Shown here piece by piece: positions 1,054 to 17,506 of a DNA stretch of 20,361 bases. Position 1 is the first letter of the stretch; every line of letters starts with the position of its first letter. The notes under the pieces are model-generated. The model searched no databases, was not told where the DNA came from, and was given only the letters and a program-made list of their open reading frames with translations. The position numbers were made by a program, and so were the translations under genes. This DNA is from a virus (Duplodnaviria > Heunggongvirae > Uroviricota > Caudoviricetes), in IMG/VR virus record IMGVR_UViG_2734482780_000011, positions 1-20,361 of that record. One strand, given 5' to 3'.

Positions 1054-1060
1054 AAAAAAT

Positions 1061-1078
1061 GCCCTCATATCAGAGGGC
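1061..1078 (-). terminator. Hairpin (gccctc / gagggc, 6-nt loop) followed on the minus strand by ATTTTTT; terminator or 5' stem-loop between the 488-aa gene and int
   Basis: Perfect 6-bp inverted repeat at 1061..1066 / 1073..1078 with a T-run at 1054..1060 on the minus strand. Confidence 0.35.
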
Positions 1079-1081
1079 TAA

Positions 1082-1110
1082 ATTTAACTGTGTGTTTGAC
1101 CAGTGGTCAA
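1082..1110 (-). promoter_or_regulatory. Candidate int-proximal promoter (minus strand: -35 TTGACC, 17-nt spacer, -10 TTAAAT) overlapping a 15-bp palindrome TTGACCAGTGGTCAA (1096..1110)
   Basis: Read directly from the sequence; the palindrome is perfect around a central G. Confidence 0.3.
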
Positions 1111-1142
1111 TGTATGTAAGTAATAAACCATACATTAGACAT

Positions 1143-2609: not shown

Positions 2610-2624
2610 TTAAATAACCTTCCA

Positions 2625-3197
2625 TTATATTTGAGATTCGATAGTTGATACAACGCGACCTTTTAACGAAATATCACTAACGTTACTTATAAAGCTTGTT
2701 AGGTTGTTTTCAATTTTTAGCTGACCAGCAGGCATGCGATACACTTTCCGAAACGATAAATTTCCATCAATTGATATTAACCAAGTCCCATCGGAATAGT
2801 TAGCATTTGAACAATCAACGAAATGAATTGTTTTTATATCTCTAATCACATGTAGATTATCGAAGCCTACGGGCAATAATTTATCGTCGAAGGTAACAAG
2901 TCCATCTTCGACAAGTACGCCATTTTTTAAAATATAGGACTGTAATTCTTTTACGCTATTAGATGACGTAGAGCCAAGAGTTTTAGAACCATTCCCTGTT
3001 ACTAGCCATTTGAGTGAGACGCCTGTCTCTAGCGCACACTGAATTATGTAGTCAGCAGGAAATGTATCTCGCAGGTAGCGGTTTGCCAAAGTACTACTGC
3101 TGATCCCCAATCGTTCACACAGCGCTTGTTTCGTCGTAACCCCATATGCTTCTAGCATACGCTCAATAGCTGCTTTTCCGCCTTTTCGCAAATCCAT
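2625..3197 (-). CDS. cI: Prophage immunity repressor CI (186-type, HTH N-terminus)
   Basis: ORF 2625..3299 (-). From the internal Met the sequence reads MDLRKGGKAAIERMLEAYGVTTKQALCERLGISSSTLANRYLRD...CALETG...WLVTG, an HTH repressor pattern like 186 CI. Start at 3197 gives 190 aa and leaves the operator/promoter region untranslated. Confidence 0.8.
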   Translation of the reverse strand: MDLRKGGKAAIERMLEAYGVTTKQALCERLGISSSTLANRYLRDTFPADYIIQCALETGVSLKWLVTGNGSKTLGSTSSNSVKELQSYILKNGVLVEDGLVTFDDKLLPVGFDNLHVIRDIKTIHFVDCSNANYSDGTWLISIDGNLSFRKVYRMPAGQLKIENNLTSFISNVSDISLKGRVVSTIESQI

Positions 3198-3205
3198 AAA
3201 ATTCC

Positions 3206-3276
3206 CGAAACGTGAGTAAATACCTTGACACTCACGTTTCGTGAGTTTAAATTCATCTCGAAACGTGAGTAATTCA
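3206..3276. promoter_or_regulatory. Lysis/lysogeny switch: candidate lytic promoter (-35 TTGACA 3225..3230, -10 TAAATT 3248..3253) with palindromic operator CTCACGTTTCGTGAG in the spacer, flanked by direct GAAACGTGAGTA half-site repeats
   Basis: Perfect inverted repeat ctcacg/cgtgag at 3231..3245 placed between the -35 and -10; GAAACGTGAGTA copies at 3206..3217 and 3262..3273. Position between divergent cI and apl matches 186/P2 switch architecture. Confidence 0.6.
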
Positions 3277-3320
3277 CTTCTTATCCCGGCTCGCCACAAG
3301 CCAATAGGAGATGTTGCATC

Positions 3321-3542
3321 ATGACCCCTAATATTTCAATAACTCTGAATACACCACACGTCACAATTGAGCGTTATAGCGAACTTACTGGTCTTTCTAT
3401 CGACACAATCAACGATATGCTGGCTGATGGTCGCATCCCTCGCCATCGTCTTCGAAAAGACAAGAAAAGAGAAAAGGTAATGATCAACCTTGCTGCTCTC
3501 ACTGTTGATGCACTTACTGATTGCAATGTTGTATTTAACTAG
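3321..3542 (+). CDS. apl: Apl/Cox-like excisionase and transcriptional regulator
   Basis: 73-aa ORF directly right of the switch, AGGAG 9 nt before the ATG, small basic protein ([15 protein letters not shown]); position and size match 186 Apl / P2 Cox. Confidence 0.65.
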
Positions 3543-3574
3543 TTCCATTTTGGGATACATCAGGGGTGTCGACT

Positions 3575-4084
3575 ATGTTTGATTACCAAGTTTCCAAACA
3601 TCCACATTTTGATGAAGCCTGTCGTGCATTCGCACTGCGCCACAACCTGGTGCAACTGGCAGAACGTGCAGGCATGAATGTGCAGATTCTGCGGAACAAG
3701 CTGAACCCAGCTCAACCTCATTTATTAACCGCACCAGAAATCTGGCTGCTTACCGATCTGACTGAAGATTCAACGCTGGTAGATGGTTTTCTGGCACAGA
3801 TTCATTGTCTGCCATGTGTACCGATTAATGAGGTAGCAAAAGAGAAACTGCCACATTACGTCATGAGTGCAACCGCAGAGATCGGGCGTGTTGCTGCAGG
3901 TGCGGTATCTGGCGATGTAAAAACCAGTACAGGTCGTCGTGATGCTATCAGCAGCATTAACTCTGTAACACGACTGATGGCGTTGGCTGCTGTTTCATTG
4001 CAGGCCCGTTTACAGGCTAACCCTGCGATGGCGAGTGCAGTTGATACCGTGACTGGCCTCGGTGCTTCATTCGGTTTGCTGTGA
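3575..4084 (+). CDS. cII: CII-like lysogeny establishment regulator (186-type)
   Basis: ORF 3566..4084; start at ATG 3575 with AGGGG upstream gives 169 aa, the size of 186 CII; position right after apl. Confidence 0.75.
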
Positions 4085-4091
4085 GGTGCTT

Positions 4092-4325
4092 ATGCTGACG
4101 AAAGAACCATCATTTGCGTCGCTGCTGGTAAAACAAAGTCCGGCAATGCACTACGGTCACGGCTGGATTTATTTACCTTGTGGGAAAAAGTGGCATCCAA
4201 GTTTTGAATTACAACCCCGGCAACAGGCTTACCGGGGAAGAAATAAAAAGCGATTCCTACAAAGATTTATGGTTAACGTGGCAAACAACCTGCGAACCAA
4301 GCGAAAAGTTTTTCTTGGAAGCTGA
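4092..4325 (+). CDS. Hypothetical small protein; its 5' part is repeated at 4828..4887
   Basis: ORF MLTKEPSFASLLVKQSPAMHYGHGW... starting at ATG 4092; 3' end overlaps the antisense 124-aa ORF, so it may be a disrupted gene copy. Confidence 0.3.
   Translation: MLTKEPSFASLLVKQSPAMHYGHGWIYLPCGKKWHPSFELQPRQQAYRGRNKKRFLQRFMVNVANNLRTKRKVFLGS
4109..4168. repeat. 60-bp direct repeat, copy 1 (partner 4828..4887, about 4 mismatches)
   Basis: atcatttgcgtcgctgctggtaaaacaaagtccggcaatgcactacggtcacggctggat versus the near-identical copy 2; weaker similarity continues a further 30 bp. Confidence 0.85.
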
Positions 4326-4647
4326 GGTTTACATCGTCAACCCGACCACAGGCAATAGCAGCTCTTTTGTAGGCAGGGTTTAACAAAGATCCGAATGTTG
4401 TGGAGTCAGAGTGATGCAAAGCTTTCAATTTTTGTGCAATGAACTGTGGAGACAATTCATCCTCGGCGTAAAGCAACTCACCATATTGTCGGCTTTGTAC
4501 GCTTGCTCGTTCCGCAATAATAGCTGGTTGCCATACAAGTTGGATTGCTGTCATTAATTTATCAGCTCGACCATGGAACGTTGCTGTCATTAGTTCAAGG
4601 TAATAACAGTAGTGTAATTGGAAGTATTCGGAGCTTTGTTTAGTCAT
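4273..4647 (-). CDS. Hypothetical 124-aa protein, antisense to the early operon
   Basis: ORF on the minus strand inside an otherwise rightward-transcribed early region, bracketed by the 60-bp direct repeats; no recognisable motif. Confidence 0.5.
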   Translation of the reverse strand: MTKQSSEYFQLHYCYYLELMTATFHGRADKLMTAIQLVWQPAIIAERASVQSRQYGELLYAEDELSPQFIAQKLKALHHSDSTTFGSLLNPAYKRAAIACGRVDDVNLSFQEKLFAWFAGCLPR

Positions 4648-4656
4648 GCCGGATTC

Positions 4657-4737
4657 CTATTTCTTCTCTTGCCCCGGTTCAGGCTGAGGTGCTGGAGCCG
4701 GGCGAGGGAGTACATGAAAGTTGTCTGTTTCTGACAT
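4657..4737 (-). CDS. Possible 26-aa proline-rich peptide (MSETDNFHVLPRPAPAPQPEPGQEKK) upstream of the 124-aa ORF
   Basis: Minus-strand ATG at 4737 preceded by AAGGAG at 7-nt spacing; stop TAG 10 nt before the 124-aa ORF start. Too short for the ORF track. Confidence 0.3.
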   Translation of the reverse strand: MSETDNFHVLPRPAPAPQPEPGQEKK

Positions 4738-4827
4738 CAGTTTTCTCCTTTGAGGGGTAGATGATTGTTAGCACAAATAGTCTACCACTGAGGCACGCGC
4801 CGGGCGTGTAGAAAAATTCCCGGCACA

Positions 4828-4887
4828 ATCATTTGCATCGCTGCTGGTAAAACAAAGCCCGGCAATGCACTACGGTCACGGCTGGAT
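4828..4887. repeat. 60-bp direct repeat, copy 2 (partner 4109..4168)
   Basis: See copy 1; this copy continues into a 41-codon ORF (4865..4990) ending at the start of the next early gene. Confidence 0.85.
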
Positions 4888-4977
4888 CATGGGTGAGGAT
4901 GGTAAACGCTGGCATCCATGTTATTCACAAGATGAATTGCTGTCTGAAGTGACCACGAGGAAACGGAGAAAGTCCAA

Positions 4978-5202
4978 ATGTATGCGGTAGAAAGTGAAGT
5001 GGTTTATCAGTTTCGTTACAGAGGGGATAGTTATTCAGTACCTGAAGATGATTTGCTCTGTTGTTATCCGTCGTTGTCGGGCGATGGCAGTTACTTTTTC
5101 ACACTAAAGGATGGGACGTTTTTACGGGGAGAGCAGGTTAAAGAGACGGTACGAAAAAATGTATCTCCCCTTGAGCGTTACCGTAAGAACAAAGAACGAT
5201 AG
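4978..5202 (+). CDS. Hypothetical early-region protein (74 aa)
   Basis: ORF with GGAGA ahead of the ATG; same strand as the early operon. Confidence 0.5.
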   Translation: MYAVESEVVYQFRYRGDSYSVPEDDLLCCYPSLSGDGSYFFTLKDGTFLRGEQVKETVRKNVSPLERYRKNKER

Positions 5203-5224
5203 TTGCGTTTTGGGGATATGAATT

Positions 5225-5566
5225 ATGGCAATTAATGGCGCTGCGGCGACTGTTCCATTAAGCCCCGGTGAACGCCTGAATGGACTTAATCACATTGCGG
5301 AATTAAGAGCGAAAGTTTTTGGCCTGAATATTGAGTCAGAGCTTGAGCGGTTTATTAAAGATATGCGTGATCCACGGGATATCAATAATGAACAAAATAA
5401 ACGGGCACTGGCTGCCATATTCTTTATGGCAAAAATTCCAGCTGAACGTCATAGCATCAGCATTAATGAGCTGACCACTGACGAAAAGCGGGAGCTGATT
5501 AAAGCAATGAATCATTTTCGTGCAGTGGTGAGCTTATTTCCCAGACGGCTAACCATGCCGAATTAA
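5225..5566 (+). CDS. Hypothetical early-region protein (113 aa)
   Basis: ORF in the early operon; no recognised motif. Confidence 0.5.
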   Translation: MAINGAAATVPLSPGERLNGLNHIAELRAKVFGLNIESELERFIKDMRDPRDINNEQNKRALAAIFFMAKIPAERHSISINELTTDEKRELIKAMNHFRAVVSLFPRRLTMPN

Positions 5567-5633
5567 CCAACTAATGAAATTCATGGCGTAAACCCGCCAG
5601 GCATCCCTTTATCTAAATTCAGGAGAATTGATT

Positions 5634-5867
5634 ATGCGTAATATTGAAACCCTCACGACTAAAACCGGACCGGATGATGCAGGGCTTAATATTTTACTGA
5701 CAGAGGCTCGTCTGGAAGAACGCCGGGCAAGGGCTGAAGCAATGGCAGCTCGCCTTGATAGCCTGGCGTGTCATATCACATCCCGCCAGCTAAACCACGT
5801 CGAAGCGGCAGAACTGCTGCGTGTGACTGCTGAAGCAATCCAGAACGAAGCGCAGGAGATCCACTGA
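5634..5867 (+). CDS. Hypothetical early-region protein (77 aa)
   Basis: AGGAG 8 nt before ATG 5634; stop overlaps the start of the next gene (ATGA-type coupling at 5865..5869). Confidence 0.55.
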   Translation: MRNIETLTTKTGPDDAGLNILLTEARLEERRARAEAMAARLDSLACHITSRQLNHVEAAELLRVTAEAIQNEAQEIH

Positions 5868-6094
5868 TGGCTGATGCAATGGATCTCGTACAGCAGCGCG
5901 TTGAAGAAGAACGCCAGCGTCATATCCGTGCTGCCCGCGCCAAAACGCCGGGCGTATCCCGCGTGCTTTGCATTGAGTGCGAAGCACCAATTCCGCCAGC
6001 ACGACGTCGCGCCATTCCGGGTGTGCAGCTTTGCATTACCTGTCAGGAAATCGCAGAGCTGAAAGGCAAACATTACAACGGAGGTGCTGTATGA
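5867..6094 (+). CDS. TraR/DksA-family C4 zinc-finger protein
   Basis: CIECEAPIPPARRRAIPGVQLCITCQE contains the CxxC-(17)-CxxC zinc-finger pattern typical of phage TraR-like proteins; translationally coupled to its neighbours. Confidence 0.7.
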   Translation: MADAMDLVQQRVEEERQRHIRAARAKTPGVSRVLCIECEAPIPPARRRAIPGVQLCITCQEIAELKGKHYNGGAV

Positions 6095-6948
6095 GCACCA
6101 TCCTGAAATGGGCGGGTAATAAAACCGCCATTATGCCGGAACTGAAAAAATACCTTCCTGCTGGCCCGCGACTGGTTGAACCTTTCGCGGGTTCTTGTGC
6201 TGTGATGATAGAGACGGATTACCCCAGCTATCTTGTTGCGGATATTAATCCTGATTTAATCAACCTCTATAAAAAGGTTGCTGCTGATTGCGAGGCGTTT
6301 ATATCTCGTGCCAGAGCTTTATTTGAGGAAGCAAACAGGGAGGTGGCTTATTACAACATAAGGCAGGAGTTTAATTACTCCACTGAAATTACTGATTTCA
6401 TGAAAGCGGTATATTTCCTGTATCTCAATCGTCATGGTTACCGTGGGTTATGTCGCTATAACAAGAGCGGGCATTTCAACATTCCCTACGGGAATTATAA
6501 AAATCCGTATTTCCCTGAAAAAGAAATTCGCAAATTTGCAGAAAAAGCCCAGCGAGCAACGTTTATCTGCGCCAGCTTTGATGAAACGCTGGCGATGTTG
6601 AAGGCGGGGGATGTGGTGTATTGCGATCCGCCTTATGACGGTACGTTTTCCGGCTATCACACTGATGGCTTCACTGAGGATGACCAGTATCACCTGGCAT
6701 CCGTTCTTGAACATCGATCATCTGAAGGTCATCCGGTCATTGTTTCTAACAGTGACACATCCCTGATTCGTTCGCTGTATCGCAATTTCACTCACCACTA
6801 CATCAAGGCAAAACGCAGCATCGGCGTGTCGGCTGGCGAGAGTAAATCTGCAACAGAAATCATTGCTGTTTCCGGGGCGCGCTGCTGGGTGGGATTTGAT
6901 CCTTCGCGTGGCGTGGATAGTTCTGCTGTGTACGAGGTGCGTGTATGA
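6091..6948 (+). CDS. dam: DNA adenine methyltransferase (Dam-like N6-adenine MTase), no adjacent restriction gene
   Basis: N-terminus [26 protein letters not shown]-binding FAGSCAV, catalytic DPPY ([10 protein letters not shown]); GGAGGTG precedes the ATG at 6091; ORF-track start at 5977 is an upstream extension. Confidence 0.9.
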
Positions 6949-7757
6949 GTCATGACGATATGAGCAACTCTAGCGGCTTTAACGAGGCCGCTGCAGCATT
7001 TTCATGGAACGGCCCGAAAAAGGCCATTAACCCTTATCTGGACCCGGCGGAAGTTGCGCCGGAGTCTGCACTTTCAAACATGATCACTCTGTACGCTGCC
7101 GATAACGAGCAGGAACAGCTGCGCCGCGATGCACTGAGTGAGCAGGTCTGGGAGCGTTATTTCTTTAATGAATCCCGTGATCCTGTCCAGCGCGAAATGG
7201 AGCAGGATAATCTCATTAGTCGGGCAAAGCTGGCGCATGAGCAGCAGCGTTTTAACCCGGACATGGTCATTCTGGCGGACGTCAGCGCCCAGCCCACCCA
7301 CATCAGCAAGCCGCTGATGCAACGTATCGAATACTTCAGCAGCCTGGGCAGGCCAAAGGCTTATTCCCGCTATTTGCGTGAGACGATTAAGCCATGTCTG
7401 GAGCGACTGGAGTATGTACGCGACAGTCAGCTATCCGCTTCTTTCCGTTTTATGGCAAGCCATCAAGGGCTTGAGGGCCTGCTGATCCTGCCTGAAATGA
7501 GTCAGGATCAGGTAAAACGCCTGTCCACCCTGGTACGCCAGGTGAAGCTGAAAAGGCGTAAAGACTACAAACAGCGAATTACAGATCATCAGCATCAGCA
7601 GCTCGTCTATGAACTGAAGTCCAGAGGATTTGATGGCAGCGAGAAAGAGGTCGATTTACTCCTTCGCGGTGGCAGTATTCCGTCAGGAGCAGGCCTGCGT
7701 ATTTTCTATCGGAACCAGCGTTTGCAGGAAGATGATAAGTGGCGGAACCTGTATTAA
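6945..7757 (+). CDS. Hypothetical 270-aa protein
   Basis: ORF start overlaps the dam stop (ATGA at 6945..6948); acidic/glutamine-rich, no recognised domain; does not look like a rolling-circle replication initiator. Confidence 0.55.
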
Positions 7758-7826
7758 TTACGCAGGTTAACAATTCGTGCTCTTAATAATACCAGGCATA
7801 TCAGGCTGATGAACGTAAAAAAACGT

Positions 7827-7867
7827 TTTACATCAGTAAGATTATTATATACTGTAAATATAAACAG
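7827..7867 (+). promoter_or_regulatory. SOS-regulated promoter: -35 TTTACA (7827..7832), -10 TACTGT (7850..7855), LexA box CTGTAAATATAAACAG (7852..7867)
   Basis: The 16-bp sequence fits the LexA consensus CTGT-N8-ACAG with an AT-rich centre and overlaps the -10, the arrangement of LexA-repressed promoters such as 186 p95. Confidence 0.65.
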
Positions 7868-7910
7868 TGGTTATGTATACAGTGTTTCTTGTGGTGTTAT
7901 AGGAGGAAAG

Positions 7911-8099
7911 ATGCAGGACTATTTTTTGGAGTCTTTGAAGCTCCAGCGCATTGATTTTTTTCTTAAGCTTGTAGCGGCTAGTGAGTGTAGTGATGAAGAG
8001 AAAGGGCTGGCTCTGCAGTGGGTTTCTGAACTGACAGATGAACTCATGGCAAAAATCAGAACCCACGAATACAACCGCTCAATGGATGTCATCAGCTGA
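7911..8099 (+). CDS. Small SOS-induced protein, possible Tum-like antirepressor N-terminal module
   Basis: AGGAGG 8 nt before ATG 7911 (ORF-track start at 7809 lies upstream of the promoter); first gene after the LexA box; followed by a DinI-like gene, as in the 186 tum region. Confidence 0.45.
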   Translation: MQDYFLESLKLQRIDFFLKLVAASECSDEEKGLALQWVSELTDELMAKIRTHEYNRSMDVIS

Positions 8100-8109
8100 G
8101 GTGACTTTT

Positions 8110-8343
8110 ATGCGCATTGAAATAATGATCGATAAAGAGCAGAAGATTAGCCAGTCTACCCTGGACGCCCTTGAATCCGAGCTTTACCGCAATCTGCGCC
8201 CCCTGTATCCCAAAACGGTAATTCGCATTCGCAAAGGTAGCTCTAACGGTGTGGAACTAACCGGACTGCAACTGGATGAAGAAAGAAAACAAGTGATGAA
8301 AATTATGCAGAAGGTGTGGGAGGACGACAGCTGGCTGCATTAA
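8110..8343 (+). CDS. DinI-family protein
   Basis: MRIEIMIDKEQKISQSTLDALESELYRNLRPLYP...KVWEDDSWLH aligns by eye with E. coli DinI (MRIEVTIAK...AIDALAGELSRR...ETWESADDW). Confidence 0.8.
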   Translation: MRIEIMIDKEQKISQSTLDALESELYRNLRPLYPKTVIRIRKGSSNGVELTGLQLDEERKQVMKIMQKVWEDDSWLH

Positions 8344-8749
8344 GAAACGTTGCCCCCAGGAGGATTCATTCTGATGGGGGCTAGTTTGGGTAGCGAGTGA
8401 AACGAGGCGTAAGGTGGGCGGCCATTTTGATAAGTGATTGTACGATTTGTGTTGTGAGTTCAACGGGACGATGCAACGCTATCCTTAATCAAGGGGACGT
8501 TGCTCATACCCATCGATGCAATGAAAATCCATACTCATGGGGAAGACCAGAATGTCCCTGCCTTTTTCATTTTGTTCAGCACATGCACTATGGCCATTGC
8601 CTTCCCAAGCTAGCTATCGTAATCACTCAGCGTCAGTAAACTACTGAAAAATTGTTTTACCTTGTATATCAATAATGCCAAATCATACCCAAAAAATCGA
8701 AAATAATTAGATCGACAGGCAGAAGGCAATGTGAATAATCTTAAAAACC

Positions 8750-8779
8750 TTGACTGTCAGTGAGGTTTGGTTCTATAAA
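8750..8779 (+). promoter_or_regulatory. Candidate promoter of the darTG operon (-35 TTGACT, 18-nt spacer, -10 TATAAA)
   Basis: Read from the sequence, about 30 nt upstream of the darT start. Confidence 0.4.
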
Positions 8780-8810
8780 TAGACTTACGAATTTGAAAGG
8801 ATGAGTTGAA

Positions 8811-9392
8811 ATGAGCGAAAGGAAAAGAATTGAAGATCAGTATCTTCTCTATCATTTAACATGTATGGATAATCTACCTAGTATTTTAGACACAGGATTA
8901 AGATCTCGTGCATCAGTAAAAGGTGAGTTTGTTGATGTGGCCGACGGTGAAATAATAACAGGTCGCGAAGCATTAAATTTGCAAACAATGGTTCCTTTTC
9001 ATTTCTTTACTAAGAATCCATTTGATGGAAGAGTCCTGAAAGATCATAAGGAAAAATCATTTTGTATTATTTCGGTTTGTCGGGCATTTGCCAAAGAAAA
9101 TGGTTGGAAAGTTATCCCTAAACATCCATTATCCACCAGTTCTGTTATAGACCTCTTAGATTATGAACAAGGAATGGCCCAAATTGACTGGGAGCTAATG
9201 AATATAAGGGATTATAAAAATGCAGAATGCAAATCTGTATGTATGGCTGAGTGTTTATCAAGTGTAACGGTCGAGCCGAAAAATTTCCATTGCATCTTTG
9301 TCAAAAATGATAACGAAAAAAAATATGTTGAAGGGTTGATAAAACAACAAGGATTAAGTATATTGATAACGATCAACACTTATATGTTCTAA
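8811..9392 (+). CDS. darT: DarT-like ssDNA ADP-ribosyltransferase toxin (DUF4433 family)
   Basis: LYHLTCMDNLPSIL, VPFHFF, DWELM and a late acidic segment match my recollection of DarT signatures (IYHITHIDNLKGIL, VPFYF, DWEAM); AT-rich; immediately followed by a macrodomain gene. Confidence 0.7.
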   Translation: MSERKRIEDQYLLYHLTCMDNLPSILDTGLRSRASVKGEFVDVADGEIITGREALNLQTMVPFHFFTKNPFDGRVLKDHKEKSFCIISVCRAFAKENGWKVIPKHPLSTSSVIDLLDYEQGMAQIDWELMNIRDYKNAECKSVCMAECLSSVTVEPKNFHCIFVKNDNEKKYVEGLIKQQGLSILITINTYMF

Positions 9393-9396
9393 TTCT

Positions 9397-10368
9397 ATGA
9401 TTAAGTATGCAAGCGGAAATCTTCTAAACTCTACATCGCAAGCTCTTGTGAATGCTGTAAACTGCCAAGGAGTCATGGGAAAGGGTATTGCTTTGGCTTT
9501 TAAAGAAACTTTTCCCTATAATTTCGAAGTTTATAAGAGAGCATGCGCCACTGGTACAATGAAAATTGGACAGGTTTTAATTGTAGAGGAAAAGGGAAAA
9601 ATAATTGTAAACTTTCCCACTAAAGATAGTTGGAGAAAAAAATCAACATATGATTTTATCTCGCAAGGCCTTGAATCTTTAGCAAAAATTATAGATGAAA
9701 AAAAAATTACATCAATATCAATACCACCTTTAGGCTGTGGTAATGGGGGCCTCGATTGGAATAAGGTTGAGGCTCTTATTTTAAAAACTTTTCAAAATTT
9801 AGATAATGTTGATGTGGTAATTTATCCGCCTGCAACTAACAATCAACTTTCAAAAAATAAAAATGTTATTAATGCTAAGCATCTTTTGGTTCACTACGCC
9901 TATGGAAAATTAAAAGTTAAGCAAAAATATTCCCTTTATACAGTTTTTTATATTTGCGAATGTATTGAGAAAGCAAATCTTTTTTTATTCGATTTTAAAC
10001 ATGGTCGGCCATACTCTTCTGAGTTAGAAAATATTATGAAGGATATAGCAAACCTTAAAGTTGAGTTGCAAGGAGATTTTGATGCTTTTATTGAAGATTA
10101 TATTAATACTCATCAATCCAAAGAGTTACAAACCGAGTTTGGTAAACTAATCTCAACTTTAAATCCAAGTATAAGTTTGCTCAATGCTCTTAAAAATAAG
10201 ATTGATTATATAGATAGCGTACATGTGATCACGAGAATTGCTAAAGAAAAAGATCATGGCTTGCATATTGACAATTTCAAAGAATATGAAAATATTGTGC
10301 AGCATTTAATTAAAAATGGATTGGTAATCGAAGATATTTTTAACGAACTAAAAATAAAGGGAAGTTAG
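9397..10368 (+). CDS. darG: DarG-like macrodomain antitoxin
   Basis: N-terminus GNLLNSTSQALVNAVNCQGVMGKGIALAF is the macrodomain nucleotide-binding signature (N-x-x-N / G-x-G loop); 4 nt downstream of darT; AT-rich. Confidence 0.75.
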   Translation: MIKYASGNLLNSTSQALVNAVNCQGVMGKGIALAFKETFPYNFEVYKRACATGTMKIGQVLIVEEKGKIIVNFPTKDSWRKKSTYDFISQGLESLAKIIDEKKITSISIPPLGCGNGGLDWNKVEALILKTFQNLDNVDVVIYPPATNNQLSKNKNVINAKHLLVHYAYGKLKVKQKYSLYTVFYICECIEKANLFLFDFKHGRPYSSELENIMKDIANLKVELQGDFDAFIEDYINTHQSKELQTEFGKLISTLNPSISLLNALKNKIDYIDSVHVITRIAKEKDHGLHIDNFKEYENIVQHLIKNGLVIEDIFNELKIKGS

Positions 10369-10920
10369 TAGCGCTATTTTCAATTTTTTTGCTGAAATTG
10401 CGCATGCACACTCTCACGCATTATAGATGCGGCGTTAATCCCGCCAGGAGTGTTGTTTAATAAATTGAACTATTTCTGCATTGAAGGATCAACTTACGCA
10501 TTCGCTGACAACGCAGGCACTCTCCTGGCTAAGCAGAAATTCAGAGTAACCAACTGGCACTTTTACAACAATTTTCTTATCAGTTGCGGCTCCATGACTT
10601 TCTGGTGGGATAACAAAGCAATTAAGGCGTGGTATTGTAAGTATCCCGCATAATCATGCTAGTAACATTTGTCCCCCATGTAACCTAATTAAGGCAACTT
10701 CCGCTCTTCGCTCACAGTGAACCTCCATGTTTGTAAACCCGTATATTTCGTTTTTTAAGTGGTCATTCAGATACGGATTTTCACTTCTCTTGGCTGTGCA
10801 TGACTATGCTGCATGAAATTGCATGATCGTTTGAGGATCGTTTTTGCTGAGGCCCCCCAGAACTGGCGGGCTTTCGCTTATGTCATGCAGGTGCATGAAA
10901 ATCACTGCATAAAGCGGGCA

Positions 10921-10939
10921 GGCGTGGCGGGGATACGAG
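10921..10939. other. Candidate cos site (P2/186-type cohesive end region)
   Basis: ggcgtggcggggatacgagcgcgcgct resembles the P2/186 cohesive-end region as I recall it (GGCG[A/T]GGCGGGGAAAGCA...GCGCGCT); recalled, not searched. Four TGCATGA copies lie 20 to 125 bp upstream. Confidence 0.5.
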
Positions 10940-11091
10940 CGCGCGCTAAGTCATATAAGAGTTATATATTGATTTGATTGCTGGACATGCATACAGTATC
11001 GCTCTATCATCTAATAAATCTTAGAGTATTTGACAATGTTTGGATAAAATGGAACCTAACTTATTCATAATCCGCTAAACAGGGATGTCAG

Positions 11092-12006
11092 ATGCCATAC
11101 CAATTGGTAGAGCTTAGCCCCGTAGCTAACGATCTTGAACAGTTAGGAACCAAAGAGAAGTTTTGGTTCTATTTCTCCGATGACACTGTAAATTTGCAGT
11201 TGTTTAAGTACTCTAGGCCAGATACTGGCGAGCATTGGTCTGAAAAGTGTGCTGCTGAGTTATGTCATTTGCTTAACATTCCACATGCTAGCTATGATTT
11301 GGCGCGATACAATGGTCGATTCGGTGTGGTGACTCAGAATATCATTCCATCTGGTTTCCGGATGGTAATGGGAAATGAAGTGCTTCACAGTTCGACATTC
11401 GATTATCCTGGGCCTTTACAAGCCGGGGAAAAGCCGGTAAGGGTCAGAGAACACACTGTCACAAGGGTATTGGGTTGTTTAGATAGGGAATCTATCAAGC
11501 CTCCTCCGAGTGTATATGATCTAACCGGGCTAAATGCAGCAGATGTATTTTGTGGATATTTGATGCTCGATGCACTTGTGAGTAATCAAGATCGCCATCA
11601 TGAAAATTGGGCGATCATGCTTAACAATGAAACTGGTGAGCAGTTTTTGTGTCCAACATACGATCATGCCGCTAGTTTAGGAAGGGAGATGTTAGATGAT
11701 GAGCGTAACGAACGGCTTAATACTAAAGATAAAAATCGACAAATCCCATGTTTTGTAAGAAAAGCTCGCTCTGAGCTATTCAAAGCAAAAACTGATAAAA
11801 AGCCCTTGCTGACCGTTGAAGCATTTCAACATGCAGTTGAAGGGAGAGTTGCCGCTCGCGACCATTGGTTAGGTAAGTTGAGCGTTTTAACAGAAGATTC
11901 CATTACAGATGTGTTTAACCAAGTGCCTTCATCGTGTATATCCGACAGTGCACGTAGATTTGCAACGTTAATGGTAATGGAAAATCGCAGAAGGTTACTA
12001 GAATGA
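11092..12006 (+). CDS. HipA-like serine/threonine kinase, short form lacking the N-terminal domain (304 aa)
   Basis: GTKEKFWF (compare HipA GAQEK), catalytic-loop-like LVSNQDRHHENWAIM (compare HipA D-x-H-x-K-N) and LCPTYDHAASLG (compare HipA P-x-YD) in the HipA order and spacing. Confidence 0.65.
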   Translation: MPYQLVELSPVANDLEQLGTKEKFWFYFSDDTVNLQLFKYSRPDTGEHWSEKCAAELCHLLNIPHASYDLARYNGRFGVVTQNIIPSGFRMVMGNEVLHSSTFDYPGPLQAGEKPVRVREHTVTRVLGCLDRESIKPPPSVYDLTGLNAADVFCGYLMLDALVSNQDRHHENWAIMLNNETGEQFLCPTYDHAASLGREMLDDERNERLNTKDKNRQIPCFVRKARSELFKAKTDKKPLLTVEAFQHAVEGRVAARDHWLGKLSVLTEDSITDVFNQVPSSCISDSARRFATLMVMENRRRLLE

Positions 12007-12743
12007 CTAATACAAACTCCGTTTACGTCGCATGGCAGGCACCAGATACCAGAGACTGGCATGTTGTTGGTAACTTGCAAGAGCGCAAATCGGGGTATGT
12101 TTTCAGGTATACCAAAGGTGCTCTTAAATCTACTAAATTTACAAAGTTTAGCGGCATGAGTGATGTTCGTGAAACTTATGTTTCGGAAGAATTGTTTCCT
12201 CTTTTTAAAAATCGCCTTTTATCACCGAGACGTCCAGAGTATCCGAGTTTCATTAAATGGCTTGGATTTGAAGAAGATAAGGTAAATCCTATCGATATTC
12301 TTGCTCGCTCGGGAGGCCTACGAAGCACTGATCAGCTGCAGATTTTCAAAAAAATTGATGTTGATTCTGATGGTAACTTTGAGCATTTTTTCTTCTTACA
12401 TGGACTTGGTTACTTAAATAGCTTAGCTAATGCTCGTGTATCTGAATTGAAACCGGGGCAAATTTTGCGTCTTTGCTTGGATCTTCAAAATGAATACGAT
12501 GGGGATGCTGTTGTCGTTCGTGCAGATAAACCAGCTGAAATCGTTGGTTATTGCCCTAGGTATTTAAGTAATGATATCAAGAAGATGTTATTGGATGATC
12601 CAAAATCAATCACTTTAACGGTCGAAAAGATTAGCGATGATGCTCCTCATAACTATCGGTTATTATGTAAATTATCAGGAGTACTAAGCCAAGCCTGTCA
12701 ATCGACGCTGATTCCTCAGGATGAGTTTGAACCTATTGAGTAA
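12003..12743 (+). CDS. Two-domain partner: HipA-N/HipS-like N-terminal domain fused to a C-terminal HIRAN-like domain (246 aa)
   Basis: Start overlaps the kinase stop (ATGA). N-terminus VYVAWQ...VGNLQ...YVFRY...LFPLFKNRLLSPRR resembles the HipA N-terminal domain. C-terminus KPGQILRLCLDLQNEYDGDAVVVRADKPAEIVGYCPRYLSNDIKKMLLDD fits the HIRAN pattern. Confidence 0.55.
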   Translation: MTNTNSVYVAWQAPDTRDWHVVGNLQERKSGYVFRYTKGALKSTKFTKFSGMSDVRETYVSEELFPLFKNRLLSPRRPEYPSFIKWLGFEEDKVNPIDILARSGGLRSTDQLQIFKKIDVDSDGNFEHFFFLHGLGYLNSLANARVSELKPGQILRLCLDLQNEYDGDAVVVRADKPAEIVGYCPRYLSNDIKKMLLDDPKSITLTVEKISDDAPHNYRLLCKLSGVLSQACQSTLIPQDEFEPIE

Positions 12744-12748
12744 ATGAA

Positions 12749-12774
12749 GAAAAGCCACCAAACGGTGGCTTTTC
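12749..12774. terminator. Bidirectional rho-independent terminator between the HipA-like module and Q
   Basis: 11-bp perfect stem gaaaagccacc / ggtggcttttc with a 4-nt loop, T-rich flanks on both strands, between convergent stops at 12743 and 12778. Confidence 0.7.
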
Positions 12775-12777
12775 TTA

Positions 12778-13818
12778 TTATGGGACTATATCTAGCGAGT
12801 AGGTATTAAACTGTATCGCCTCCTTGCCAAGCCAATCATTCATCTCCTGTAATCGCTTTTGTAGTGGCATTAGCTCATTTCGGACGAATACACGGCTTGC
12901 CTTCTCCACATCCCCAAACCCCCCAACATTATTCGGCATAATCCCCATCATTTGCGGCGGCACACGATGCGCCGCCATCATGTCGTCCCGGCTTACGTTC
13001 TTGATGTTCAGAAACTCATCCTTTGCCGCCACTTCTGACAGCGGGATGATCTGAAGCCCGTCCTTTTTGCCGTTAGGCGAGTACATAAACAGGTTGCGGA
13101 AGTTGCCCGGACCTTTGGCGCTTTTCATCGCGTTGCGGAGGTTGTTCACATCCTCCTGGTTCTGAGCGGCATCGGTCATGTACATTATGAATCCTGCATG
13201 GCTGCCATTAATATAATATTTGCGTCGGAACAGCGTGGCGGACTCGTTGAGCAGGGCTGACGGAATGGCAGAAAGATAGCCGGGCAGGCCGTAGATCTCC
13301 TGGTTGATATCGGGTTCCATCAGATGAAAGATGCTGCCTTTCGTGAACTGATACGGCTGGGTTGTCATACCGTATTGCACAAACCAGTAGGTATCCAGGT
13401 CTAACCCGCGTCGGGTGTATTTTGCCAGAGCAGGCTCAAGGGCGATAACTTCACCGAAGCGGTTCGTGCGTTTCTCCAGGTAGGCGTTACCAAATACCAG
13501 ATAGTCCTGCACAAAACGTGAAAAAGCCTGCTGGCTAAGCAGCGGGTGAGGGATGTAGGTGCTGGTTAGAATGTTGCATTTCACTGCAATGGGTGAGCTG
13601 TGATGCACGGCGGCGCGGAAGGTTCGCGCCAGTCCGTCAAAGCTGACGGGCGGCTCATACCAACGGTCCATCTGTACGCATTCCACATAGTCCAGTAATT
13701 CTCGGCGGTCCAGTACTGGAATGGGATCGCCGAAGCTGAATGCTTCGGCTGAAGTCTGGCTTTTATGCTGGGTCTGGTTCTGCGACGCAGCGCGGTTCTT
13801 CTTACTCTTTCCCATCAA
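12778..13818 (-). CDS. Q: Portal protein (P2 gpQ-like)
   Basis: 346 aa, close to the size of P2 gpQ; start overlaps the stop of the upstream terminase fragment as in the P2 PQ operon; 3' end points toward the cos-like site. Confidence 0.8.
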   Translation of the reverse strand: MMGKSKKNRAASQNQTQHKSQTSAEAFSFGDPIPVLDRRELLDYVECVQMDRWYEPPVSFDGLARTFRAAVHHSSPIAVKCNILTSTYIPHPLLSQQAFSRFVQDYLVFGNAYLEKRTNRFGEVIALEPALAKYTRRGLDLDTYWFVQYGMTTQPYQFTKGSIFHLMEPDINQEIYGLPGYLSAIPSALLNESATLFRRKYYINGSHAGFIMYMTDAAQNQEDVNNLRNAMKSAKGPGNFRNLFMYSPNGKKDGLQIIPLSEVAAKDEFLNIKNVSRDDMMAAHRVPPQMMGIMPNNVGGFGDVEKASRVFVRNELMPLQKRLQEMNDWLGKEAIQFNTYSLDIVP

Positions 13819-14231
13819 AAAATCTCCACAATATTGCTGGTATTGGCGGACTCGCCCTGCAGCGGTTCGTTAAACAGTGCGTGCATTGTTGCCCAGGCCA
13901 GATCGGCGTGGCTGGCTTCTTCGCTGCGGCTGGCTTCATAGGTCGGGCGGTTGCCACTGGCGGTGGTGGCGCGACGGATTGCCATAAATGACTGCGCTAT
14001 GTCGGTGTGTCCGGCGTCAAACTCCAGACGGCGGTGGCTGATAATGTCGTAGGCCTTGAGTACCAGAGCGTTTTTAACGTTGGGGTTGTAGACAAACTCC
14101 CGGACGGCAGGAAAGAACGCTTTCACGTTCTCATAAACCCCGTGACCGACGCCTGTCGAGTCAATGCCGATATAGGTCACGTTGTACTGCTCGGTCAGTT
14201 TTTTGATTCCGCCCTTAATCATCTCAACCAT
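13815..14231 (-). pseudogene. P: Terminase large subunit (gpP-like), C-terminal 138-aa remnant
   Basis: Only the C-terminal part of what should be an approximately 590-aa protein; coupled to Q; no upstream start or ATPase region present. Confidence 0.65.
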
Positions 14232-14298
14232 GCGTTACAGCTCGATCCCCGCTGTGGCGTGAAAAAAGACAAACAGCAGCTGGAGCGCAGACTGCGCA

Positions 14299-15618
14299 AT
14301 GACAGCCGCTGACAGAACGTGCCCCCGCGCACGGGCGGCACGGGGTGGCGAAAGGCACAGCCACATCAAAACCCCGTCCACCGCCCTTTATTTCAGGAGA
14401 AAGCAGCATGAAGTTTGTTGCGCCAGAACAGGCAACGCCGCAGGTTTACTTACTGCGCCGTTGTCGTCTTTGCGCCGCACGGCATCACTGACGGGAAATG
14501 TCCTGAAAACTGTAGCAGGTGCGCCGGTTGCACTTTTGCGGTCTGGATTATCCGGTTTACGTGCTGTTGCTGTTATGTTTATGAATCCTCTGGCGGTACT
14601 GCGCGGTGGACTGGCCGCCGCAGGCACGGTGCTGCGAGTACTGGCATCTGGTCCACTGGCGATGCTGCGCGTTGCCCTGTATGCCATATCTGGTCTGTTA
14701 GGTGCTCTGCTCAGTCCGATAGGTCTTGTGGTTACTGCACTGGCGGGCGTGGCGCTGGTTGTCTGGAAATACTGGCAACCCATCACCGCATTTCTCGGTG
14801 GCGTGGTGGAAGGATTCAAAGCGGCGGCAGGTCCCATCAGTGCAGCGTTCGAACCGCTTAAGCCCGTGTTCCAGTGGATTGGCGACAAAGTGCAGGCGCT
14901 GTGGGGCTGGTTTACTGATCTGCTGACGCCCGTTAAGTCGACCTCTGCCGAACTGCAGAGCGCAGCGGCAATGGGGCGGCGATTCGGGGAGGCACTGGCG
15001 GAAGGGCTGAATATGGTCATGCATCCGCTGGACTCCCTGAAATCCGGCGTTTCCTGGTTGCTGGAGAAGCTCGGCATTGTCAGTAAAGAGGCCGCAAAGG
15101 CAAAACTGCCGGAAAGCGTGACGCGTCAGCAACCTGCGACGGTGAATGCAGACGGTAAAGTGATGATGCCATCGGGTGGTTTTCCATCATGGGGATATGA
15201 CTTTGCGGGGATGTATGACAGCGGCGGGTATATCCCGCGCGGGCAGTTTGGCATCGTCGGTGAAAACGGGCCGGAAATTGTTAACGGCCCGGCAAATGTG
15301 ACCAGCCGGAGAAATACAGCTGCACTGGCTGCCGTTGTTGCCGGAATGATGGGCGTTGCTGCCGCGCCAGCAGAGCTTCCACCGTTGCACCCTTTGGCAC
15401 TTCCCGCGAAAGGTGGAGAAGCAATTGTGAGTCGCGCAGCCACTGTGCCGCTCGTTCAACGGATTGAGGCACCGACGCAGATCATCATTCAGACGCAGCC
15501 AGGACAAAGTGCGCAGGATATTGCGCGGGAGGTGGCACGCCAGCTTGATGAACGTGAACGCAGGCTGAAGGCAAAAGCCAGGAGTAACTACAGCGATCAG
15601 GGGGGATACGACGCATGA
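14299..15618 (+). pseudogene. T: Tail tape measure protein (gpT-like), C-terminal portion only
   Basis: Gly/Ala-rich helical repeats and GGYIPRGQFGIVGENGPEIV near the C-terminus; 439-codon frame versus about 800 aa expected; followed directly by U and D. Confidence 0.65.
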
Positions 15619-16100
15619 TGATGGTGCTGGGATTGTACGTGTTTATGCTGCGCACCGTTCCGTATCAGGAACTGCAGTATCAACGCAGCTGGCGACATGC
15701 GGCAAACAGTCGGGTAAACCGACGTCCGTCCACGCAGTTTCTGGGACCGGAAAACGACATGCTGACGCTTTCCGGTGTTCTTATGCCGGAAATAACAGGC
15801 GGCAGGCTGTCGTTGCTGGCACTGGAGCAGATGGCAGAACAGGGGAAAGCATGGCCCCTGATTGAAGGCAGCGGCACGATTTACGGCATGTATGTGATTG
15901 AGGGACTGAATCAGACTAAAACGGAGTTTTTCCGCGATGGTATGCCGCGCCGGATTGAGTTCACCCTGTCGCTCAAACGGGTGGATGAATCCCTGTCCGA
16001 TATGTTCGGTGATCTCAGTGCGCAGCTGAATAATTTGCAGGATACGACAACGTCTGCCTTAAGCGATATCAGTAAAACGGTGGGAGGGCTGCTGTCGTGA
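15615..16100 (+). CDS. U: Tail protein gpU-like
   Basis: 161 aa, same size and position as P2 gpU between T and D; start overlaps the T stop. Confidence 0.8.
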   Translation: MMMVLGLYVFMLRTVPYQELQYQRSWRHAANSRVNRRPSTQFLGPENDMLTLSGVLMPEITGGRLSLLALEQMAEQGKAWPLIEGSGTIYGMYVIEGLNQTKTEFFRDGMPRRIEFTLSLKRVDESLSDMFGDLSAQLNNLQDTTTSALSDISKTVGGLLS

Positions 16101-17197
16101 ATTTCAGCTCTGAACTGCTTAACAAAGGCAACAAAACTCCGGCATTCAGCATCAGTATTGAGGGTAAGGATATCACCACTGTGCTGGATAACCGCCTGAT
16201 GAGTCTGACGCTGACGGACAATCGGGGCTTTGAAGCGGACCAGCTTGATCTGGAGCTGGACGACGCCGACGGAAAAATCGTGCTGCCGCGCCGTGGTGCG
16301 GTCATTACGCTGGCGTTGGGCTGGAAGGGGCAGTCGCTTTTCCCGAAAGGAGCATTCACGGTGGACGAGATTGAACACACTGGCGCACCGGACCGCCTGA
16401 CTATCCGGGCGCGAAGTGCTGATTTTCGTGAAACCCTGAATATCCGCCGTGAAAAATCGTGGCACAAGACCACCGTTGGGGAAGTGGTGAAGGAAATAGC
16501 TGTGCGGCACAAACTGAAGATGGCATTGGGTGAAGACCTGTCGGATAAACCTGTGGAACATATAGACCAGACCAATGAGAGTGACGGCAGTTTTCTGATG
16601 CGGCTGGCGCGCCAGTACGGTGCTATTGCGTCGGTGAAAAATGGCAATCTGTTATTCATCCGGCAGGGACAGGGTAAAAGCGCCAGCGGTAAACCACTAC
16701 CGGTTATCACTATCACACGTAAGGACGGCGACAGTCACCGCTTTACCCTGGCAGATCGCGGAGCCTACACGGGCGTAATTGCCAGCTGGTTGCATACCCG
16801 CGAACCCGCGAAGAAAGAAAGCACCACGGTGAAGCGTAAGCGCAGGACTAAGAAGCAGAAGAAAGAGCCGGAAGCGAAGCAGGGCGATTACCTGGTGGGT
16901 ACAGATGAAAACGTGCTGGTACTTAATCGCACCTATGCCAACCGGAGCAACGCCGAACGGGCGGCGAAAATGCAGTGGGAACGCCTGCAACGTGGCGTTG
17001 CGTCATTCTCGCTACAACTGGCAGAAGGTCGGGCGGATCTCTACACGGAAATGCCAGTGAAAGTCAGAGGCTTTAAACAGCCGATAGATGATGCGGAATG
17101 GACTATTACCACCCTGACGCATACTGTCAATCCGGATAACGGTTTTACGACCAGTCTGGAGCTTGAAGTGAAGATTAATGATTTCGAAATGGAATGA
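16097..17197 (+). CDS. D: Tail protein gpD-like
   Basis: 366 aa, GTGA overlap with the U stop, located immediately before ogr as in P2/186. Confidence 0.8.
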   Translation: MNFSSELLNKGNKTPAFSISIEGKDITTVLDNRLMSLTLTDNRGFEADQLDLELDDADGKIVLPRRGAVITLALGWKGQSLFPKGAFTVDEIEHTGAPDRLTIRARSADFRETLNIRREKSWHKTTVGEVVKEIAVRHKLKMALGEDLSDKPVEHIDQTNESDGSFLMRLARQYGAIASVKNGNLLFIRQGQGKSASGKPLPVITITRKDGDSHRFTLADRGAYTGVIASWLHTREPAKKESTTVKRKRRTKKQKKEPEAKQGDYLVGTDENVLVLNRTYANRSNAERAAKMQWERLQRGVASFSLQLAEGRADLYTEMPVKVRGFKQPIDDAEWTITTLTHTVNPDNGFTTSLELEVKINDFEME

Positions 17198-17287
17198 TTC
17201 TTCGTAATAGAGAACTTTTAAGTTTTCAAAATGGAATAATGCGGTATCATTATTGTGAATTTAGCAAAAATGGGGAGAACTCGAAAA

Positions 17288-17506
17288 ATGATGATTTGCC
17301 CACTGTGTGGAAGTGCCGCCCATACTCGCAGCAGTTTTCAGGTATCTTCATTGACCAAAGAGCGTTACAACCAGTGCCAGAACATTAACTGCAGCCATAC
17401 TTTTGTTACCCATGAAACTTTTGTTCGTTCGATTGCAACGCTAAAAGAGTCAAATCCGGTTCAGCCGCATCCAATGAAATCAGGACAGGTGGCGCTCTCT
17501 CTTTGA
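17288..17506 (+). CDS. ogr: Late gene transcription activator Ogr/B (zinc finger)
   Basis: MMICPLCGSAAHTRSS...CQNINCSHTF matches the Ogr CxxC-N22-CxxxxC pattern; 72 aa from ATG 17288 (GGGGAGA upstream). Confidence 0.85.
   Translation: MMICPLCGSAAHTRSSFQVSSLTKERYNQCQNINCSHTFVTHETFVRSIATLKESNPVQPHPMKSGQVALSL

Follow-up and report, generated by a model that had tools for sequence, protein, structure and literature searches.

Introduction

Whether a kinase of the HipA superfamily can still act on a target when the lysine of its catalytic loop, D-x-H-x-K-N, is replaced by glutamate is the question raised by a gene in the viral DNA analysed here (the window: 20,361 nucleotides (nt), positions 1 to 20,361 of IMG/VR record IMGVR_UViG_2734482780_000011, Caudoviricetes). 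This gene, hipI, encodes a protein of 304 amino acids (aa) with the loop D-R-H-H-E-N, and an earlier note, which had placed the loop by eye, considered a pseudokinase, altered chemistry or a simple misalignment as explanations of the glutamate. The reading favoured here, with a probability of about 0.72, is that hipI specifies a catalytically competent HipI-type kinase for which D-R-H-H-E-N is the normal loop, that E171 is a clade-variable residue outside phosphotransfer, and that the kinase works together with HipN, the product of the adjoining gene. HipI is most likely a working toxin kinase paired with a DNA-end-binding antitoxin. It is probably a working kinase because the fourth residue after the catalytic aspartate (D+4) varies among HipA-type kinases and lies outside the catalytic machinery. 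The features of the kinase gene are as follows.

11092..12006, + strand: hipI, short HipA-superfamily Ser/Thr kinase and putative toxin (304-aa open reading frame (ORF); PADLOC PDC-M03A, Pfam HipA_C, AlphaFold2 (AF2) model with Foldseek)
11590..11607, + strand: catalytic loop D167-R168-H169-H170-E171-N172, with the E171 codon GAA at 11602-11604 (alignments and conservation)
11146..11160, + strand: Gly-rich (ATP-binding) loop G19-T-K-E-K23 (conservation; register by motif)
11206..11208, + strand: K39, predicted ATP alpha/beta-phosphate lysine (conservation; position after the Gly-rich loop)
11662..11664, + strand: D191, Mg-binding Asp in P-T-Y-D-H-A (aligned with HipA D332 and CtkA FDCG)

Register of the catalytic loop

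HipA of E. coli K-12 (NC_000913.3) contains the stretch IGATDGHAKNFSVF, in which D309-G-H-A-K313-N314 is followed by PFYD332, so that the D-x-H-x-K-N loop given in the earlier note is correct. The corresponding stretch of HipI is LVSNQDRHHENWAIM (residues 162-176, nt 11575-11619). When a profile of 33 family sequences is compared with HipA by hhalign, LISNQDRHHENWAI...CPTYDHAA is placed on LIGATDGHAKNFSV...TPFYDIIS, with SNQDRHHENW opposite GATDGHAKNF and PTYDHAA opposite PFYDIIS, and the only gap, of one residue, falls in the linker that joins the catalytic motif to the Mg motif. E171 aligns with HipA K313, at D+4, and the Lys-to-Glu difference is real; the caution urged in the earlier note was sensible. 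The same HipI stretch is placed by phmmer, and then by hmmsearch with the family profile (E=7e-4), on CtkA GNFDRHNGNW...PIFDCGS, CtkA being the only significant PDB sequence match to this profile. D167, N172 and D191 fall on the catalytic Asp, the Asn and the Mg-binding Asp of CtkA and HipA in three independent alignments.

That the loop had been misaligned by eye, with the true catalytic loop elsewhere and a Lys at the K313 position, is therefore scarcely credible: hhalign against HipA, phmmer and hmmsearch against CtkA, and Pfam HipA_C all uphold the by-eye register with equal D-to-N spacing, each of the 270 homologues examined (270/270) carries a single D-x-H-x-x-N, and nothing was found in favour of another placement. 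The earlier note had also held that a conserved lysine elsewhere in the loop would refute its concern over the glutamate, which is the wrong test, since the loop needs no lysine.

Conservation within the HipI family

An exhaustive HMMER search yielded 3217 representatives at E<=1e-3, of which the best 150 (clustered at 50% identity and 31-60% identical to HipI) were analysed, together with the 120 closest homologues (57-99% identical), 80 genome loci and 57 viral loci. D167, R168, H169, N172, W173 and D191 are invariant in 150/150 representatives, and the D, R, H and N of the loop are likewise invariant in 120/120 close homologues and 57/57 viral loci, so that a match of the motif by chance is excluded. 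Among the representatives that align at the N-terminal positions, E16 is present in 143/143, G19 in 145/146, K23 in 146/147 and K39 in 147/148, while position 20 is Thr or Ser in 138/146. The complete DRHHEN loop recurs in 119 of the 120 closest homologues, 75 of the 80 genome loci and all 57 viral loci.

Position 171 behaves differently from these residues. In the 150 representatives it is Glu in 124 (83%), Gln in 17, Leu in three, Asn in two, Ala in two, Lys in one and Arg in one, and the sequences without Glu, which are no closer to one another than to the remaining representatives, do not look like a single lineage on their sequences. An acidic residue at the preceding position (D+3) is enriched where D+4 is not Glu (11/26 versus 16/124; Fisher p=0.0012, uncorrected for phylogeny), in loops such as DRHDQN, DRHDKN, DRHDRN, DRHEQN and others (equivalent to nt 11599-11604), and a negative charge at D+3 or D+4 is thereby retained in 135/150 representatives (90%). 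A scan of HipI columns for others that separate the E171 and non-E171 groups gave nothing convincing except the neighbouring D+3.

These patterns bear directly on the possibility that the Lys-to-Glu change disables phosphotransfer and that HipI serves as a scaffold or nucleotide-binding switch. Such a pseudokinase would account for the replacement by E171 of a Lys conserved in HipA (E. coli, Shewanella) and Legionella HipT, and for the presence of the invariant E16 where HipA and HipT have their autophosphorylated Ser. The documented catalytic and ATP/Mg-binding residues are nevertheless conserved in essentially all 150 divergent representatives, whereas position 171 also admits Q, L, A, N, K and R. 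Judged from sequence, position 171 is under a family-specific but non-catalytic constraint within a fully conserved active site, a pattern unlike that of a pseudokinase; a pseudokinase family would not keep such a residue set, and the conservation of HipI speaks for a working kinase.

Individual family members depart from this picture. The kinase at locus L037 (5983-6900, from a Rivularia metagenome-assembled genome (MAG)) has the loop D-R-Y-H-E-N, in which the otherwise invariant D+2 His is Tyr, and on its sequence it is a better pseudokinase candidate than HipI of the window, because the D+2 His contacts the gamma-phosphate in HipT and the H199A mutant is inactive. At locus L021 (approximately 1367-2377, from an Endozoicomonas MAG), an in-frame stop falls precisely at the E171 codon (SNQDRHH-stop-NWAIL) upstream of an intact hipN, which may represent an inactivated toxin or a sequencing error. 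At L022, L046, L061 and L135 the best kinase ORF is clearly below full length and hipN is intact; the toxin genes of these loci may carry frameshifts or be in decay.

The D+4 position across HipA-type kinases

The residue at D+4 differs among kinases related to HipI by sequence or fold, as listed below.

E. coli HipA: D-G-H-A-K-N, D+4 Lys
Shewanella HipA: D-A-H-G-K-N, D+4 Lys
Legionella HipT: D-M-H-L-K-N, D+4 Lys
E. coli O127 HipT: Arg214 beside D210/H212/N215 (PMC10627512, PMC9325769)
E. coli HipH/YjjJ (Ser/Thr kinase toxin in RefSeq): D-M-H-A-G-N, D+4 Gly
CtkA: D-R-H-N-G-N, D+4 Gly
human VPS34 (lipid kinase, among the fold matches): D-R-H-L-D-N, D+4 Asp

Canonical eukaryotic Ser/Thr kinases, with the loop H-R-D-L-K-P-E-N, also have Glu at D+4 (PKA Glu170), where it helps to recognise basic substrate residues. 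Some kinases annotated as active do without a D+4 Lys, having Gly in HipH and CtkA, Asp in VPS34 and Arg214 in HipT of E. coli O127, which is a further point against a pseudokinase. In the crystal structure of Legionella HipT, the ligands of AMP-PNP are V58, H199, D219, Q59, K61, K85 and N202, a list that does not include the D+4 residue Lys201 (register D197...K201-N202). [quoted passage not shown] In E. coli HipT, R214 has been grouped with the sites that dock the phosphoserine of the loop (eLife; PMC10627512). Since Lys201 is no ATP ligand and R214 belongs to the phosphoserine-docking group, the basic residue that HipA and HipT carry at D+4 has a regulatory or interface role and no catalytic one. 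By the same token, E171 may have an equivalent regulatory or specificity role in HipI with the charge reversed. A literature search on the DRHxxN loop and on HipA K313/Lys313 returned nothing relevant. Taken with the conserved active site, the absence of a defining catalytic role for the D+4 Lys makes the pseudokinase suggested earlier very improbable.

Predicted fold, Gly-rich loop and substrate class

HipI lacks the N-subdomain 1 of HipA, its Gly-rich loop already lying at residues 19-23 of 304 aa. The protein matches PADLOC PDC-M03A over residues 2-304 (E=2.2e-122) and Pfam HipA_C (PF07804) over residues 154-225 only (E=2.9e-4). Its AF2 model (predicted local distance difference test (pLDDT) 84, predicted template modelling score (pTM) 0.85; low confidence at residues 16-20 and 98-106) has the HipA-superfamily kinase fold, and three of the four published core motifs of the superfamily, namely the Gly-rich loop, D-x-H-x-x-N and the Mg-binding Asp, are present. 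Foldseek ranks CtkA first (template modelling score (TM) 0.65-0.70), followed by HipA, E. coli HipT, Legionella HipT and Bacillus CotH, and then VPS34, with a probability of 1.0 for all Hip and CtkA matches; the HipBST structures among the matches are 8ezr, 7vkb and 7wcf.

The motif register of the Gly-rich loop was taken against HipA S150-V-A-G-A-Q-E-K157, not from a scored alignment. In this register, E16 (nt 11137-11139), three residues ahead of the loop Gly, occupies the place of HipA Ser150, HipT Ser57 and HipT_Lp Ser54, each of which is the autophosphorylated serine, and K39 would by its position be the equivalent of HipA K181 and HipT_Lp K85. HipI may lack the HipA-type autophosphorylation switch or may use T20 instead.

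A different proposal is that HipI is active but has a substrate other than a protein Ser/Thr, be it a small molecule, the head group of a lipid or a nucleic-acid hydroxyl that its partner presents through HIRAN. The D-R-H-x-x-N loop is indeed of the type found in CtkA and PI3K/PI4K and not of the HipA type, HipI has a weak match to Pfam PI3_PI4_kinase (E=0.11), VPS34 is among the fold matches, and relatives of the HIRAN domain carried by the obligate partner bind DNA 3'-OH ends. However, CtkA, the nearest relative in structure, phosphorylates protein Ser/Thr, as does every characterised Hip kinase, the likeness of the model to PI3K is much weaker than that to CtkA (query-normalised TM (TMq) 0.38-0.43), and the HipS-like domain of the partner suggests antitoxin-type regulation as in HipBST. 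An altered substrate class is accordingly unlikely, and E171 itself supplies no reason for suspecting the altered chemistry raised in the earlier note.

The partner HipN and the hipIN module

The gene that follows hipI completes a two-gene module.

12003..12743, + strand: hipN, putative antitoxin and sensor, 246 aa (HIRAN, Couple_hipA, PADLOC PDC-M03B, AF2 with Foldseek)

The two genes are translationally coupled, and the hipN ATG overlaps the hipI stop by 4 nt (ATGA at 12003-12006). HipN matches Pfam HIRAN (1e-13) and, weakly at its N terminus, Couple_hipA (0.018), as well as PADLOC PDC-M03B over residues 1-244 (3.4e-93). Its AF2 model (pLDDT 88.6) is matched by Foldseek to the HLTF HIRAN domain (target-normalised TM (TMt) ~0.63) and to lp_0118 (0.76), and the N domain is matched to E. 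coli HipS 7ab3_E (TMt 0.70, 22% identity). By hhalign the N domain also aligns weakly with HipA residues 5-65 (E=0.0035, probability 9%), and when the N-domain profile was run against PDB sequences by hmmsearch, neither HipS nor HipA came up, so that the link between HipN and HipS comes only from the fold search and the weak hhalign match.

The pairing of the two genes is essentially obligate. In 79 of the 80 genome loci, which span Proteobacteria, Cyanobacteria, Acidobacteria, Planctomycetes and Clostridia, hipN lies directly downstream of the kinase gene, the sole exception being at a contig end, and the same holds for 57/57 viral loci. In the passages on hipIN of Gerdes et al. 2021 (mBio; PMC8262856), the module is defined by a short HipI without N-subdomain 1 and a HipN that joins a HipS-like domain to HIRAN, is represented by 14 modules in the data set, and is predicted to be a toxin-antitoxin module possibly sensing phage DNA ends. 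The locus in the window agrees with this definition: HipI has 304 aa where the family ranges from 279 to 321 aa, N-subdomain 1 is lacking, and a gene for a HipS-like and HIRAN protein follows. The adjacent genes likewise match both components, PDC-M03A and PDC-M03B, of PDC-M03, a candidate defence system of PADLOC that is mentioned in passing in one paper; in a 2025 paper, the HipA-HIRAN pair is still a prediction. By these matches the locus adds one more, prophage-borne member to the bioinformatically known hipIN module, and it is an ordinary one. Apparent mentions of 'HIRAN' in papers on defence systems proved to be the author name Hirano.

Proposed mechanism and the role of E171

By analogy with HipBST, HipN would, with its HipS-like domain, cap HipI over both the Gly-rich loop and the active site and keep the kinase inactive. 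The HIRAN domain, by analogy with HLTF, would bind free DNA 3' ends arising in phage infection or DNA damage, and this binding would release or activate HipI. The released kinase might then phosphorylate an essential factor of translation, just as GltX is a substrate of HipA and TrpS of HipT, and growth arrest followed by aborted infection would be the expected outcome.

Within this scheme, a tentative role can be proposed for E171: together with the invariant Arg71 of HipN it could make up a latch of reversed charge, the counterpart of the contact of Lys201 with HipS Gly59 (flanked by Glu58) in Legionella HipST. Between HipT and HipS, a basic residue of the kinase is matched with a HipS loop that is acidic and main-chain-rich; between HipI and HipN, the acidic E171 may be matched with R71. 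The HipS motifs concerned read FFE58-G59-LLPE63-G (Legionella) and LAPE63-GW65 (E. coli). The hhalign comparison places HipN F68-K69-N70-R71-L72 on HipA F61-D62-N63-L64-L65, which puts N70 at the position of HipS_Lp Gly59, and R71 and R77 are invariant in 76 HipN sequences. More speculative is the idea that HipI, guided to DNA ends by the HIRAN domain of HipN, phosphorylates a DNA 3'-OH end or an end-bound protein and so blocks phage replication or packaging directly. HipN would then stay bound and HipI would be no conventional translation-factor toxin; if this were true, the PI3K/CtkA-type D-R-H loop and the acidic D+4 would reflect a non-canonical substrate. The latch between E171 and R71 is the more likely of these two proposals, though itself less likely than not, and phosphorylation at DNA ends is very doubtful.

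Several points weigh against the reading of HipI as a competent kinase restrained by HipN. The target, the trigger and any antiphage activity of HipI are argued wholly by analogy, and a literature search on HipI/HipN pairs yields bioinformatic mentions and no experimental study. [quoted passage not shown] With regard to the latch, the three genome loci with other residues at position 171 (L007 with Q, L028 with Q and L080 with L; three loci only) all retain HipN R71 and R77, which tells neither for it nor against it, and the enrichment of acidic D+3 comes from the phylogenetically uncorrected test given above. The score of HipI against Pfam HipA_C (21.0 bits) is also below the gathering cut-off of 30.5. 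This last point reflects profile sensitivity and is no contradiction, because a precomputed PF07804 match is present in many HipI homologues that are 57-84% identical.

Prophage location and neighbouring genes

The window is a degraded P2/186-like prophage with the order integrase, CI, CII, Dam methylase, DinI-like gene, DarT/DarG, cos-homologous stretch, hipIN and portal gene, followed by a truncated terminase large-subunit gene, gpU, gpD, Ogr, a chromosomal Asp-Al_Ex permease gene and a YbjM-family gene. The features that flank hipIN are the following.

10889..10947 (end approximate), no strand assigned: cos-homologous stretch of a P2-like prophage (megablast to Peduoviridae phages)
10982..11010, + strand: candidate operon promoter, sigma-70-like TGGACA-17-TATCAT (consensus match only)
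12778..13818, - strand: P2-type portal gene (gpQ), which converges on hipN and bounds the cargo slot on the right (Pfam Phage_portal 3.7e-19)

The pieces matched by megablast to Peduoviridae phages start at 10889, which corresponds to record position 1 onward of phage Cartapus, whose positions 1-59 are annotated as cos. The sigma-70-like site at 10982..11010 is the sole one upstream of hipI, a consensus match that carries no indication of function. The small ORFs upstream of hipI gave no Pfam match and include no HipB helix-turn-helix (HTH) gene, and this region holds the cos site. hipIN thus sits between the cos stretch and the portal gene; the same cos/portal arrangement occurs in phage Cartapus, and a convergent portal gene follows hipN in 37/57 viral hipIN loci. 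Other P2-like phages have the same cos and portal flanks and carry other cargo in the slot, including AIPR/Abi and DUF4145 proteins. This slot is the cos-proximal hotspot between gpA and gpQ of Rousset et al. 2022, the main text of which, on P2 hotspots, mentions neither HipA nor HIRAN.

A second defence pair, the toxin-antitoxin system DarT/DarG (8811-10368, + strand; DarT: Pfam 9e-22, PADLOC 2e-36; DarG: PADLOC 1e-80, NCBIfam 230.9 bits, just below the cut-off of 250), lies beyond the cos stretch, about 720 nt upstream of hipI. DarG was found within 4 kb of hipIN in 0/57 viral loci, and the stacking of DarTG and hipIN in the hotspot looks particular to this prophage.

The prophage remnant extends over 1-17506. 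Of its terminase large-subunit gene there remains a C-terminal fragment of 138 aa (13815-14231, - strand), and capsid genes, most tail genes and a replication gene of gpA size were not found in the window, the largest ORF on the + strand between 4 and 9 kb being of 323 aa. Intact in the remnant are int, CI, CII, Dam, DinI, DarTG, hipIN, the portal gene, gpU, gpD and Ogr; the defence cargo has outlasted its phage. Two further ORFs have no Pfam or PADLOC match. The first, of 488 aa (1143-2609, - strand), lies between the integrase and CI repressor genes and may be further uncharacterised cargo. The second, of 439 aa (14299-15618, + strand), lies between the truncated terminase gene and gpU and, judged by its position, may be what the deletion left of a tail tape-measure gene, namely its C-terminal part.

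Implications

In annotation, a Glu opposite HipA K313 is no sign of a dead kinase, and D-R-H-H-E-N marks a large family. The two-gene module hipIN (PDC-M03), a predicted toxin-antitoxin or abortive-infection system, is widespread, and P2-like prophages repeatedly carry it in the defence hotspot between cos and the portal gene. Two specific sites are offered for the restraint and release of the kinase, namely E171 with HipN R71, and E16 at the autophosphorylation position of HipA and HipT. The value of the result lies in the correction of a plausible mis-annotation rule and in these concrete residues.

Comparison with known systems

The closest likeness is to hipIN as presented in the passages on that module in Gerdes et al. 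2021 (PMC8262856), with which the locus shares the short core kinase, the N-terminal Gly-rich loop and the HipS-like and HIRAN partner and from which it shows no structural difference. The set described there comprises 14 modules, compared with the 3217 profile-matching representatives found here, and a location in prophage hotspots is absent from those passages.

HipBST of E. coli O127 and Legionella pneumophila is, like hipIN, a split HipA in which a core kinase without N-subdomain 1 is accompanied by a separate HipS-type domain; the kinase fold is common to both, and HipS (7ab3_E) is structurally like the N domain of HipN. In hipIN, however, the order of the genes is the opposite one, the HipS-like gene coming downstream, no HipB HTH gene is present, and HIRAN is appended. 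The loops differ as well, being D-R-H-H-E-N in HipI, D-M-H-L-K-N in HipT of Legionella and D-x-H-x-R-N in that of E. coli. The Ser at the autophosphorylation site of HipT is an invariant Glu in HipI, and where HipS has the motif LxPEG(W/I), HipN has N-R-L-L-x-x-x-R-P.

The best match to HipI in structure is CtkA (JHP940) of Helicobacter pylori (PDB 3akj/3akk/3akl), and the two have the D-R-H-x-x-N-W loop and the F/Y-D Mg motif in common at about 15% identity. Neither protein has a Lys at D+4, CtkA having Gly and HipI Glu. CtkA is a secreted, host-directed kinase, and it is not known to have a HipN-like partner. E. coli HipA (hipBA) shares the superfamily fold with HipI, and its catalytic Asp, His, Asn and Mg-binding Asp stand in the same register, but its same-chain N-subdomain 1, Lys313, Ser150 and upstream HipB HTH antitoxin all lack counterparts in the window locus. 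The D+4 Lys of canonical HipA, which is E171 in HipI, recurs as Lys in 1/150 representatives.

A further comparison is provided by PDC-M66 / DS-6, a validated two-gene antiphage system in which a HipA-like kinase is paired with a DUF3037 protein (PMC12548924). The PDC-M66 model is not among the PADLOC families listed for HipI or HipN. Both systems consist of two genes and include a HipA-like kinase, whereas the partner is DUF3037 in the one and HipS-HIRAN in the other. PDC-M66 / DS-6 thus stands as a precedent for HipA-fold kinases in phage defence.

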